From positions 248,001 through 312,000 of the forward strand of contig NW_019028989.1 of assembly GCF_002105155.1 (NCBI RefSeq): a DNA stretch of 64,000 nt. The letters are read 5' to 3'. The stretch comes from Lobosporangium transversale (taxonomy: Eukaryota). Numbering within the stretch: position 1 is the first letter of the stretch; each line of letters begins with the position of its first letter. Of this stretch, positions 26,600-32,168 are shown in pieces. A program made the position numbers and the translations under genes. The notes under the pieces are model-generated. The model ran no database searches. It was not told the DNA's origin and saw nothing but the letters and a program-made list of their open reading frames with translations.

Positions 26600-27279
26600 T
26601 TTGTTAAATTAGTCCGTAAGCTTAGGTTGCACAAAAAAGGATGTTAAAGAAAGCCAGATGTTCGGAGTCGACGGATTCCTTGTGCCTGTCAATTGAGAAC
26701 AATAACAATTAAAGAAAAAAGAGAAGAAAAGAGAAGTAAAAGTATGAGTAATATGTAGCAAGGTGGCGAAACGGGAGAGGGGAGATGAGATTCCGTGTAA
26801 TCGTGCAGTGGTATGACTTGTTTGAATGTCTGTGATCAAAATAAAAATAATAAAAAATATGCGCGTGGCATGGAGCGGCTATGAGCATGGGTGTTTACAG
26901 GAACACGACACAAGTGTGCTTACCAAAACAAATAGTAATAAAAAAAAAAATAAGAAAAAAAAACACGGGGTTTTTTCTTCACTTCTGCACATTAAAATGT
27001 ACACTCCTGTCTCACTCTTTTGCAAAATTTGCAAAAAAGTGGATTTTATATATGTTCTGCAACGCTCATTGGCTGGATTAACTTCAATTCAAAAATACTA
27101 TTGTAAAAAAAATCAAGCGATTCTATTGGCCTACTGTTTTTTCTCTAAAGGCAGGGAGACTTGCACTTACAGAGCCCTCATTCATGTGACCATTGATGAA
27201 GGAGCGTCTCATTTGACAAAATAATCCTGCCCTTCTTTCTCACACAACACCCTCACACAACACCCACACTCAGGAAACT

Positions 27280-28733
27280 ATGACTAATAATCTTTCAATC
27301 TTCTGCATCCTCGACGGACACACGGTTTCGTCTTCTTTTTCCGTGGAGGTTGCACTTGGTGCCACTGTCGATAAGCTTAAAGAGTCCATCAAGGCCACAA
27401 TGAGTGCCGGGCTTGAGGGTGTAGATTCGAACACTCTTACCCTTTGGAAGGTCTCCATACCCGTTACCAAAGAAGACATGAACAAGGTCATTTCTCTGGA
27501 AGAACTGACTGACAAAGAGGTTCTACTCCCAACCACTCCACTCAGAGTTGCTTTTGAAGGACTGAAGGAAGGCGAATTTATCCACATATTCGTTCAATGT
27601 CCACCGAAAGGTACAACCCTACATTTATGAATTTCACTGCTTTTTATCCACGAGCGTCATATCATATCATACACTTATTTTCTACTCTTTCTCTTATTCA
27701 ATCATAGGACCTTCTCAACTGATGCTCAAGATCTATTTTCCGGAGAAGAAACAAAAGGTTTCCTGGACCACTAATCATACTACTGTCCTCCTCGAGGAGC
27801 TGAAGACCATTGTCATTAATAACCATGACGGCATTGATATCGGAAATGTAAAAATATCAATTCAGCATCGCCGAAGACTTTGCCACGCCTCGTCATTGCC
27901 AGAAACACCCGCCACCGACAAAGACCTGCGTAACATCCTCTGCACCTATTCCGAGAGGGGACTCGGAACGCTTTCCGTCCGTGTCCCAGACCATATTCAT
28001 CGTTCAGGTTCCAGGAGGTCTGCGAGCTTTCAACCCAGAAAAAATTCCTCTTGAAGAAATTTTCCCCGAGGAAGAGTCATCAGATAGAAAATTGGAGGCT
28101 CTGGCTGGGCTTTACGAACAATTGGCTACTTATCAAGAGACAAAGCGGCCTCGAGAGTCTGAAGCAGAGGTGTCCATTTGGGTCGGAGCCTTCCTCAGCC
28201 ATGCTCTAAATGTATACAAGGGTCAATTAATTTTAAGGGTGGAGAAAACATTGGAGGGTCAACGAGGACGCGGTTCCATTGACTTCGCATTCGAATCTCC
28301 AGACGACGCATTACTTCTTGGCGTTATTGAAGTAAAGCATGATGATTGGCTACAAGGGTTAGCACAAAACTTGGTCCAGTTAGAATCGTGTGCGGTGGCG
28401 CGCTTAGCAAAATACCCCTCTTCAAGCTCGAACATGAAGCGATCAATGTGCTATGGGATCATCACGACCGGCGCCCGCTGGCATTTCGTGAAATGTTATC
28501 TCGAGCCTCCGTCTGAAGTACTCAAGTTCCGATACTCCGATGCCCTATATTTTACCCTCGAAAGCGCAGATTGGAAGGATGAAGCAAGGAATATCCTCAT
28601 GCATCTCCTCAAGATGATCGAGGAAATGCTAATCATCGACAGCGAAAACAACAGAAGAAATCTCACGCCATCCATTCGTTCCAATGATTCTCTAGTCTCA
28701 TCCATACAAGTCAAAAAAAAGAAAAATTTATAA
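27280..28733 (+). CDS. Crinkler (CRN) effector-like protein: CRN ubiquitin-like header + PB1/Ubl-like region + PD-(D/E)xK nuclease; frame break near 27990
   Basis: LSIFCILDG..SFSVEV...TVDKLKESIK, LTLWKV (LxLxLAK-like) and IHIFVQCPP (HVLVxxP-like); intron 27611-27707; GSIDFAF...VIEVK...GLAQNLVQLE...YGIITTGARWHF. Confidence 0.85.
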
Positions 28734-28887
28734 ATCGCCGCATTGGCTTCTTTAAAACCCCCAATAACTTTTTTCAGATGACAGAATGACTATAAAGGAA
28801 GGGTCGTCGTTGACAACGTCTTGCCCATTTTCGAATGGAACTAGTAACAATTTTCAAAGTAAAGTTCCATAGTACCAAATTTAATTA

Positions 28888-31584
28888 TTATTTACCCCCA
28901 ATATTATGGGGCCGAAAGATTACGCCGGGAAATCTGGCCTTAATATGCGCATCAATCCGCTCCTCCTCCTCTCTACGTTCTTGTTCACGCTTCCGAACCC
29001 CCGCAACATACTCTCGGCTGGCCTCAAAGACATCGCTGCCAAGATGGGCATCGGCTAACAACTCAAGTTTTTCTTTGATCTCCTTGTACTCTCTTCCCCG
29101 CAACACCTGAGCCGCAGCCATGAGCTTGTCGTGCGCTTCGGGCCTATCTCCCTTTCGCCCTTGGTCTCCTCAGAGTCCGAATATGAAGAAATCGTCGTAG
29201 AGCTCAGTTGAATAATGACAGAAGGTTCCTCGCCACCTTCCTCCAACTCTGTATCACTAACCGCCACATGAAGGAACCTGCCGTGTTCATCAAATACAAG
29301 ATCTTTTTCGTCGCTGGAGCCGAGGAAATCATCATCGGAATCAGTTTCAGGATACTCGTAGAGCCCCAAAGAGTAATCTCCCTGCTGCTTGAAGTGCGCC
29401 TGGAAGTACTCGTTGCTTTCTTCTTGTTCTTCAATAAACTGGCAAAGAATGGGGGCCCCGTCAAGCAAGCTATGTAATGACGCCATCTCTTCCTCGTGCA
29501 TCAACTCTACCACAGTTTGAGGCACATGCTGGATACTTATTGAGTTTGACAGGACTGAGGGTTGAGGCATGTCAGATGGCAAAGACCGAAGCTCTGCATC
29601 CATGATGTCGTTCAGCTGATAAAGTGATAGAACATCGCTTCGGAAATATTCTAGCGCCTCAGCAATATCAGAGCCATCAGTTTCACTTGCCAAGAGTAGC
29701 TCCTTTTGCTTGTCTTCGAATATCGGAACATGGTGGAAACAATGTCGGATACACTCTTGTTTGACCTCATGCCAAGCCTTCACAATATAGCACCAGCCTT
29801 GGAGATTGGTGATCTTGTAAGGGCTACCTTCAACAGGATTTAACGCCTTCCGAGCCCTCTCAATCGCTGTTTTACGGAGGACGGAGGCTCGATACTTCCG
29901 CTTGAAAACAGCAATCACACCAACGTCAAGCGGCTGCGTAACAGAGGTGGAGTTGGGTGGAAGCGCCAACAACTGAATACTCGGATACAATTGAGGATAC
30001 CTCGATGCGAGAGTATGCGCTGGGGCATTGTCCATCAGTAGCAGGATGCGACGAGAAGGATCGGCTCTCGTAATTGAATCATGAAAGCATTTGAGCCAAT
30101 AAAGGAAAAGTACCCCTGTCATGTAGTCGGCACGTTTGTGAAGATCGATTTTTCTGTATCCATCTGGAAGACCATTTAACAATTGATTAAGAACATCTCC
30201 CAAGGCTTTGGTAAGTGTCTCTGATGACAAAGGCTGGATGTCAACATCTTGCATTAAAACCTTGTTTTGTTTAAAGTCTTTCGGCAAATGCTGGGCTAAA
30301 ATACATAAATAAAAGAAAGAAAAAACGCATGATAAGCATGGCAAAGAAGCAAGAGACATCACTAAGATACACTACCTCCTTACCCATGATGAAAGGCTTG
30401 CGTTTATCAGTTCCCAGAGCATTGGAGCAGAACAATATGGACACTCTTGAGCTTGCAGGCTTTGTGCCTGCTTTCAGTTCCTCAGCCGGGTCAAAGGTCC
30501 ATTGCGTAACGGTCTGTAGAAAGAGACCTGTCTCGTCCGCATTGTAAATATCAGCTAACGAAAACTGGGAAGTAATCTTTTTGATATTTGCAATCTGAGG
30601 CGCAAGTTTGGCAAGATCGACAGAGCCTGCTTCTCCCTTCAATCAATGATATGAGAAGCCCCAAGCCTTGGTGAAAGATGAGTTTGAAAATTTTGGTCTT
30701 GGGAACTTCAATCCACCATTACGCAATGAGAGCATCGTGTAGATTTCATTTGCCATAAATCGCAACAAAGAGTAATCGACAGGTAAACGCATACGCCTCA
30801 CGGCAAGGACCAGCTCTGTTAGAACCAGCTCTACCGGATAGAATTCACGGATTGATCCTCTGACATTATACCTGGAATCCAGCAAACCTTCGGGCATTGA
30901 TTTGAGCACAGTTCTTTTAGTAAGAAGGTGCGAAATGAATCGGGAAGGCAGATTCATCTTCTTCTCGAACTGTGATGTACTGGGTTTAATCGGTACCATT
31001 GCACACTTCTCGCAGTAGTCATCATATTCCGCCAGAATTTGCAGCTGTTGCCTCAGGGTCATCCTATTGCATTTATTATTTTGTGATAATGCAGGCAGAA
31101 TAGGCCTTGGCGTTCTTAGTCCTTCCTGGATGGTACCTGCATGAGAAGTTGTGAGGAGCACATTGCTTCTACTTCTCCTTGCACGTTTAGTATCACTTCT
31201 GTTTTTGTTTCTACTCTGCCGGCTGATATTAAGACTAGCGCTGTTATCGTCACCCTTACTAGTGTTGTCATTGTAGACTTGGAGAGGTTGGATGGGTTGG
31301 AAAGGCCGAATGGCTCGGAAAGGTCTAGATACAATTGGTGGATTAGTACTAAGTGGTGAGATAGAGACGGCAGAACTGTCGTTCCCGCCTCTGCCGACGT
31401 TGGATCGGCTTTCACTATTATTGATATAGCCTGATCGTATATTTTGAGGCGTTCCAGACATAGTTAGCCCATTGGACGTGTCATAAACTGGTGTGTGCGA
31501 GATGATATTGCCTGACCTGTTGCTGGTCCTGGTACGAGCACTATTGCTGCTGCTGTTGCCGTTGATGTTGATGTTGCTGGCCAT
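28888..31584 (-). pseudogene. pogo/Tigger/CENP-B-like transposase (HTH + DDE_1, DD34D) with an in-frame stop
   Basis: YNADETGLF, LLMDNAPAH and TQPLDVGVI; intron 30296-30383; TGA at 30643-30645 within SYH*LKGEAGSVD; further frame change near 29120. Confidence 0.88.
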
Positions 31585-32168
31585 TTTAAGGACTAAATCG
31601 GATCGTAGTAAAGGTGGATAAGCATTGATTCCTCGGCTACATGGATCAGGTAGCCCTTGCAGCACTCAAAGTTTGCAAAGAAGCACATTACTAACCTGAC
31701 GTGTGTTTACGATGTCTGTAATTGAGAAAAGATATCATTACAGCCATGGATTACTTTTGTCATATATATATTTTTTTTTGCTGGATACAGGTTTGTAAGC
31801 AGGATTTTTATTCTCTGCAAGTTAATGTGGTGCTATGGTGGGGAACTTTATCAAAGGTCACATGAAATGAGTGCTCTGTAACTGCAAGTTTCCCTGCCTT
31901 TAGAGAGAAAATAGTAAGCCAATAGAATCACTTGATTTTTTTTTACAATAGTACTTTTGAATTGAAGTTAATCCAGCCAATGAGCGTTGCAGAACATATA
32001 TAAAATCCACTTTTTTGCAAATTTTGCAAAAGAGTGAGACAGGAGTGTATTGGATGATTGGATTGGCTCTTTTTGTCCATTCAAAAATGGCATATCTGAT
32101 TCCCTTTTACGTGATACAGCCGTACGTGAATGAAAAAAATTACAAAGTGTGCAAAAAATTTATTAACT

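Follow-up and report, generated by a model that had tools for sequence, protein, structure and literature searches.

A pogo-type transposon of Lobosporangium transversale with a frameshifted Crinkler gene between its ends: a likely case of gene capture

Background

Elements of the pogo superfamily (Fot/Fot-like, Tigger, Lemi and others) have a DDE_1 transposase with a DDD triad, a TA target-site duplication and inverted ends, and in Gao et al. (2020, PMC7386202) they are given sizes of 1.2-5.2 kb and are described with one or two transposase open reading frames (ORFs). We have analyzed an element of this type in a 64,000-nucleotide stretch of the genome of Lobosporangium transversale (contig NW_019028989.1, positions 248,001 to 312,000); this whole stretch is referred to as the window, and coordinates below are window positions. 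The element resembles the superfamily in its transposase, TA duplication and inverted ends and, at 5.05 kb, falls within the published size range, but it adds a second, unrelated gene, a member of the Crinkler (CRN) family. Its 200-bp ends are also longer than those of most pogo types (≤40, 40-60 or ~100 bp in the same source), and 34 residues lie between the last two catalytic aspartates, whereas Fot/Fot-like transposases are given there as DD35D. The main conclusion of this analysis is that a pogo-type cut-and-paste transposon has likely captured a CRN gene of its host and was probably copied on at least one occasion with both genes together; the CRN gene is now frameshifted, and the transposase gene of the window copy carries a premature stop codon.

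Gene capture by transposons is already known in fungi. In Pyrenophora tritici-repentis, a histone H3-like gene is carried by a hAT element, and a sequestered ORF by an element of the Tc1/mariner superfamily that is present in 46 copies (Manning et al. 2013, PMC3538342). The element described here is similar in that a cellular gene or gene fragment is situated between the ends beside the transposase, was probably copied along with it and is transcribed. It differs from the Pyrenophora elements in its Crinkler cargo, its Mortierellomycota host, its low copy number (only about two) and the damage to both of its genes.

Two further systems are related through the cargo. Crinkler/CR effectors with C-termini of the restriction-endonuclease (REase) type (Zhang et al. 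2016, as presented in a review, PMC5289972) have the same ubiquitin-like header and a variable C-terminal enzyme of the REase fold. In the window gene, unlike in those effectors, header and nuclease are not in one frame, conserved residues have changed and the closest relative is only 38% identical. For oomycetes, Helitron-mediated copying of CRN genes has been proposed (PMC5289972). AACRNL, a Crinkler-like ADP-ribosyltransferase (ART) of teleosts, has spread by means of hAT and mariner elements on its flanks (Xu et al. 2026, PMC12957317). Like the window gene, it is a Crinkler-family gene bracketed by cut-and-paste inverted ends, and it is duplicated along with them, as the window gene probably is; it differs in its ART toxin domain, its animal host and its degenerate header. 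The same paper reports that the AACRNL protein has activity and relieves the repression of its own locus; nothing comparable emerged for the window element. The original prediction, made from the window sequence, had presented the locus as the best candidate for an undescribed system, a proposal that is weakened by the precedents in PMC3538342 and PMC12957317. Our literature searches for a CRN gene within a transposon with terminal inverted repeats yielded just these two papers, on AACRNL and on Pyrenophora, and no report of a CRN gene within a pogo element; a search on transposable elements of L. transversale returned nothing relevant.

Results and discussion

Structure of the element

The element is 5,046 bp long (27002-32047, or 27000-32049 with the TA on both sides). 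Its inverted ends start with CACTCCTG... and abut the TA directly on each side. Global alignment of the two ends gives 94.1% identity across 204 columns, the TA and the first 93 bases being identical, and a repeat finder resolves the ends into three contiguous inverted pairs, of 113 nt (99%), 78 nt (91%) and 21 nt (90%). Within the window, the 31-base tip is present at these two ends and nowhere else, and it was absent from all of 100 shuffles. Over their inner 110 bp, a part that is unique to this element, the arms show 91% complementarity. The TA duplication and terminal inverted repeats are those of the pogo superfamily, and the CRN gene is found between these ends beside the transposase, which is the arrangement of a transduplicating transposon. 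Features are listed in Table 1.

Table 1. Features of the pogo-type element and its two genes (window positions).
Feature	Position	Strand	Basis or remark
Left TA target-site duplication	27000..27001		direct reading; same as the TA at 32048-49
Left terminal inverted repeat	27002..27201	+	pairwise alignment; outer ~90 bp common to a far larger repeat family
CRN exon 1, Crinkler N-terminal ubiquitin-like header	27280..27610	+	Pfam PF20147
CRN intron, GT..AG, 97 nt	27611..27707	+	spliced contig, run X5
CRN exon 2 in exon-1 frame: second ubiquitin-like beta-grasp, disordered tail, stop 28052-54	27708..28054	+	
Interval of frame break	27986..28045	+	tblastn of intact relatives switches frame
PD-(D/E)xK restriction-endonuclease-fold CRN C-terminal domain	28032..28733	+	out of frame with header
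Pogo-type transposase gene (DDE_1, D..D..34..D), interrupted in window copy	29055..31584	-	Pfam, triad spacing
Predicted transposase intron, GT..AG, 88 nt	30296..30383	-	frame continuity only; no RNA contig there
In-frame TGA in transposase	30643..30645	-	reading frame; other copy AGA (Arg)
Right terminal inverted repeat	31846..32047	-	repeat finder and pairwise alignment
Right TA target-site duplication	32048..32049		direct reading

The two genes are convergent. The CRN gene starts 79 bases inside the left end and the transposase gene 262 bases inside the right end. On either side of the element is a gene on the minus strand, identified by Pfam as a dynamin N-terminal exon (Dynamin_N, E 7.3e-35) and Sas10/Utp3 (Sas10_Utp3, E 1.2e-11). 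No other sequence resembling the element or either of its genes is present elsewhere in the window. Taken together, the ends, the TA, the tip, the flanks and the lack of a further copy in the window uphold the anatomy given in the original prediction, namely a TA-flanked unit with ~200-bp repeats, identical over their first 93 bp, that encloses two convergent genes, one of them a CRN gene, and is located between DNM1 and SAS10.

A composite of two nested elements was also considered and was rejected, as internal copies of the ends were not found within the element. No joint across 27002-32047, as expected of an empty site, was seen in the contigs of any public run compared.

The Crinkler gene and its frame break

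The header of the CRN gene matches the Pfam Crinkler profile over all of its 106 positions (E 3.8e-18). Run X5 was treated as RNA because its contigs are spliced at two introns, those of the CRN gene and of SAS10; none of the runs is recorded as RNA. A spliced X5 contig (1119 nt), which differs from the window at 4 sites, skips exactly the 97 bases of the GT..AG intron, in agreement with the intron that had been predicted for this gene. Exons 1 and 2, read in frame, have a predicted product of 225 aa. The sole close protein in a collection of 5.8 billion is P0001, a hypothetical protein of 250 aa from L. transversale, which is 93% identical to the window gene in exon 1 and 99% in exon 2 and ends at the same stop codon. 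The predicted structure of P0001 has two beta-grasp domains (pLDDT about 90; the second at residues 139-227) and a disordered tail. The best structural matches of the second domain are ISG15 and linear di-ubiquitin (E 1.5e-07), not PB1 specifically. The region that had been called PB1-like thus appears, from the model, to have a ubiquitin-like beta-grasp fold, and the earlier label is upheld to the level of that fold only. A PDB sequence search with a CRN profile gave nothing useful (best E 0.12). One X5 contig, of depth 312.6, has a "goes back" joint of 312 bases that leads from 27610 to 27299; such a joint might stem from a tandemly repeated header exon in a paralogue, or from looping of the assembly graph.

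Downstream of the second domain the gene changes frame. In tblastn searches with intact relatives, homology to the window is collinear through the header (27280-27609), the middle part (27710-27985) and the C-terminal part (28032-28631), in three frames: middle-domain homology extends up to 27985, and the C-terminal domain begins at 28032-28047 in the next frame. Related metagenome genes have the middle and C-terminal parts in one ORF of 350 codons after the header exon. Since relatives have all three parts in one protein, the break in the window gene is a frameshift, and the collinear homology identifies this gene as a normal three-part CRN gene with one intron and one frame break. The break is real and not a sequencing error, as contigs of DNA (runs X1 and X4) and of RNA (X5), which come from three studies, read through 27546-29740 or 27706-28761 without a single gap. 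It is common to all copies seen in four public runs, and to P0001. Whereas Crinkler proteins have header and C-terminal enzyme in one polypeptide, here the two are in different frames and the first of these ends at the exon-2 stop. The frame of the nuclease is open from 27852 to 28733 (293 codons) and has no ATG before the catalytic core.

An exhaustive search found 237 relatives of the nuclease domain at E≤1e-3 and 63 at E≤1e-10, with a best identity of 38%. The named relatives are from Mortierella, Linnemannia, Paraglomus and Rhizophagus and have the same three-part layout. A Crinkler N domain is found at the start of 28 of the 40 relatives checked (27 above the Pfam cut-off), the other 12 being without a Pfam match. 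A protein word-index search with the nuclease ORF, covering proteins of 161-513 aa, gave no match. The alignment of 63 sequences defines the residues conserved in the family: E44, GxxGxGxxD84, E100-x-K102, Q112-N113, G142-I-V-T-D146, W150, E154-C155 and W194. The window domain retains D84, E100, K102 and Q112, and thus a D...ExK motif; its changes are T146 (D in 54/63), K154 (E in 51/63), K194 (W in 49/63) and I99 (T in 51/63). The structural model of this domain (mean pLDDT 86.6, pTM 0.81) matches BpuSI with Z 13.4 (rmsd 3.4 over 153 aligned residues), followed by DrdV (Z 11.7), EcoRI (Z 9.1) and HsdR (Z 9.0), and Foldseek agrees; the model also matches two mitoribosomal proteins (Z 14.1 and 13.3). 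The PD-(D/E)xK nuclease that had been recognized in this gene is accordingly present in fold and motif, but in another frame than the header and middle parts and without a start codon. For the same reasons, the suggestion that the CRN nuclease acts as a toxin or accessory factor is not borne out.

We consider it unlikely that the gene is nevertheless a working module, with the nuclease expressed by ribosomal frameshifting or an alternative splice and serving as a toxin, an addiction module or an accessory nuclease. Such a module would account for a nuclease frame that has stayed open for 293 codons with D84, E100 and K102 in place; GT..AG pairs able to restore the frame do exist, and a break common to all copies has not prevented their spread. 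However, the shift required is +1 and not the usual -1, and residues conserved in the family have been lost (D146 to T, E154 to K, W194 to K). The X5 contigs, from which rare isoforms are dropped, contain only the joint of the 97-nt intron and the "goes back" joint described above, with none across 27848-28100, and none of 47 related CRN loci showed a transposase (see below).

It is likewise improbable that selection acts on the short tandem ubiquitin-like protein itself, which might serve, for instance, as a header-only decoy for full-length CRN proteins or as their regulator, the nuclease remnant being irrelevant. This protein is annotated, the same stop terminates at least three near-identical versions of it, a spliced transcript is present, and both domains are predicted to fold with high confidence. 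Against this, among the differences between copies in the exons of the short protein, replacements (E/Q, E/K) are as frequent as silent changes; the copies are also too recent for selection to be visible, and no similarly truncated relative was seen, although no search was aimed at such proteins.

The transposase gene

The catalytic domain of the transposase matches DDE_1 (E 8.7e-21) and has the motifs ADETG, MDNAP and PLDVG, which supply the D-D-D triad, with 34 residues between the second and third aspartates. Its neighbours in the ESM Atlas all belong to DDE_1/tigger clusters. The N-terminus is of low complexity: neither the N-terminal 313 aa nor the next 82 aa has a Pfam family at E≤1, and the N-terminus has no sequence match in the PDB. 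Pogo transposases have CENP-B-like/HTH_Tnp_Tc5 DNA-binding domains in this region, and by eye the sequence may resemble the usual helix-turn-helix pattern. A protein word-index search limited to 724-2065 aa found no relatives of the transposase.

An autonomous copy would have an uninterrupted transposase ORF. The window copy has an in-frame TGA and so cannot make the full-length protein; the DD34D transposase of pogo type that had been predicted is upheld in type and spacing, and its frame is interrupted in this copy. A contig of run X4 has AGA (Arg) at this codon and 9 additional bases behind 30679, and in both X1 and X4 a contig breaks off at 30680 and a loose end is present. Two variants of the interior are found within the same runs, the 9-base insertion being represented by a contig as well as by a loose end, and the AGA contig together with the breaks at 30680 indicates that a stop-free version of the transposase is present in the same material. 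At position 30527 the other copy encodes Asp in place of the Gly of the ADETG motif, beside the first catalytic Asp. Judged from sequence, each copy seems to carry its own possibly damaging change in the transposase, the TGA in one and the Asp at 30527 in the other. Coverage of the transposase in the RNA-like run X5 is sparse (depth 0-8.6) and gives no firm word on expression.

The final ~115 bases of the transposase ORF are overlapped by a 93-codon ORF in a different frame (28888-29169, minus strand), which continues past the end of the transposase ORF. It looks coding (charged, helical) and has no Pfam match; it may represent a second frame break, at the C-terminus of the transposase, or a chance ORF.

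Copies of the element and of its ends

Copy number was estimated from the k-mer depth of short contigs from the public runs. In X4 the flanks have depths of 118.5 and 122.4, and the interior contigs (27546-31984) depths of 248.6, 249.1, 213.3 and 234.8. The corresponding values are 11.7 and 10.4 for the flanks and 15.4-21.5 for the interior in X1, and 10.9 for a flank and 14.5 and 20.1 for the inner arms in X2. Depth in both flanks thus remains 1x as far as the TA, and 27065-31984 is at about 2x. A single unbranched X4 contig (27546-29740), containing CRN exon 2, the spacer and the 3' end of the transposase, is at 2.1x. On depth evidence only, the interior seems to be present in full about twice, each time with the two genes linked. 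Since the interior is present in about two copies and the flanks are single, the two genes were probably moved, or at least duplicated, as one unit. The differences between the copies, over both genes, are 9 replacements and 1 nonsense change versus 6 silent changes, too few for a test; in these small numbers there is no apparent sign of purifying selection between copies.

It is very unlikely, in our view, that there is no mobile unit at all, and that a resident CRN gene came to be bracketed by independent insertions bearing these ends, the 2x depth then reflecting a segmental duplication or collapsed contigs. Independent insertions are in themselves plausible, as the outer ends are those of a family whose depth is 34-49 times that of single-copy sequence, and no contig joins the interior to a second site. 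What speaks against them is that depth changes from 1x in the flanks at the TA to ~2x over all of 27065-31984, that the element-specific inner 110 bp of the arms match each other, that no internal remnants of ends were found and that the TA is perfect at both ends.

The header exon behaves differently from the rest of the element. At 27299-27575 its depth in X4 is 3.2x, as against about 2x elsewhere in the element. In all four runs compared, a contig joins this exon to a different 5' flank that matches the start of P0001, and an X5 contig of 1550 nt shares solely the header exon with the window. These contigs, with their other flank, indicate a third version of the CRN gene with a different upstream region. 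The excess suggests either a paralogue with the same header and another upstream region, or gene conversion among CRN genes at the level of the exon.

The outermost 60-90 bp of the ends are far more abundant. At 27038-27051 the summed depth, at 80% likeness, is 49x that of single copy in X4, 34x in X1 and 45x in X2, and the depth of the inner left end (27094-27182) reveals just the two arms of this element. Other contigs leave the element at ~27033, into different upstream sequence, and at ~27079 and ~27089, into other interiors, and several other flanks abut TA-CACTCC. This branching indicates that most elements with these termini have a different interior, and it suggests that the terminal core (27024-27094) belongs to a larger family of elements or of miniature inverted-repeat transposable elements (MITEs) with related ends and other interiors.

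Run X7, which has the same species label, contains next to none of the window, not even the housekeeping flanks. It has short diverged matches at 27252-27323, in the 5' region of the CRN gene, and at 31159-31199, in the N-terminus of the transposase. X7 may represent a distinct lineage with a relative of the element.

CRN genes in other genomes

The motif pattern of the nuclease domain retrieved 47 metagenome contigs, most of them short. In tblastn comparisons with the window, 46 of these match the C-terminal domain, 16 the header and none the transposase. Among the 17 contigs of at least 3 kb, 64 of the 80 ORFs of at least 130 aa were scanned (the 16 left out mostly overlap, or are antisense to, a longer ORF at the same place); the scan gave 11 with Crinkler N and none with a transposase family. 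On none of the nine longest contigs is the CRN gene surrounded by an inverted repeat. Weak as this sample is, the metagenome loci do not support a recurrent partnership between CRN genes and pogo elements. That CRN genes generally use cut-and-paste transposons as vehicles by which they are copied, shuffled and spread in early-diverging fungi, with the out-of-frame nuclease expressed conditionally through frameshifting or alternative splicing as a selfish retention toxin, is highly improbable. The original prediction of a vehicle that spreads CRN effectors is not supported either, because the nuclease is out of frame and without a start codon in every copy seen, the transposase of the window copy is interrupted, most elements that share the outer ends have another interior, none of the 47 loci showed a transposase, and the nine longest lacked inverted repeats around the CRN gene.

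On two of these contigs (L025:3478-5628 and L044:2922-5864) a second gene with a Crinkler header is found a few kb from the nuclease-type CRN gene; in both the header is followed by a long ORF (515-779 codons) without a Pfam match. CRN genes thus appear to cluster. A third contig (L043:2589-3662) has an Endonuclease_7 ORF (E 8.6e-06) ~3 kb upstream of its nuclease-type CRN gene.

Capture and decay of the Crinkler gene

L. transversale is a soil saprotroph. The CRN gene would have been taken up by a pogo element from the large CRN repertoire of the fungus itself; its closest relatives are in Mortierellomycota and Glomeromycota, at an identity of ≤38%. Transcription of the captured gene would be driven by the left end or the subterminal region. 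The left end, 79 bases upstream of the CRN gene, mirrors the right end on the transposase side, and it probably supplies the promoter. The CRN gene would then ride passively, the shared ends being cut by a transposase from the stop-free copy or from a related element. It would yield only the 225-aa tandem ubiquitin-like protein, with the nuclease part left untranslated, and after at least one joint copying both genes would now be decaying.

Several observations weigh against this reading. On paper, 114 GT..AG pairs could restore the CRN frame by splicing, and an alternative transcript that does so is conceivable, as the contigs drop rare isoforms. With its 4 differences from the window, the spliced CRN transcript may derive from another copy. 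The 293 open codons of the nuclease, which would fit a very recent break, could less likely mean that the frame is still in use. The depth of the interior, measured on short contigs, is 1.3-2.1x and not cleanly 2x, and no second insertion site is linked to the interior, since contigs break inside the repeated ends. Finally, the P0001-type copy, a possible donor, differs in its 5' flank.

Capture of the CRN gene by the pogo-type element, followed by decay, nonetheless seems to us the likely history of this locus. With cargo and transposase both broken, the window copy looks like a dead end, and the element is most likely a further instance of gene capture, young and in decay. What it offers is not a new system but a starting point for surveying whole genomes of Mortierellomycota and Glomeromycota. 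CRN proteins form a large family that is modular and changes fast, and there is no settled view of how its members multiply and exchange domains. The element would provide a concrete case, open to checking, in which a cut-and-paste transposon has duplicated a fungal CRN gene, with a header exon that is also shared with a paralogue of different 5' flank.

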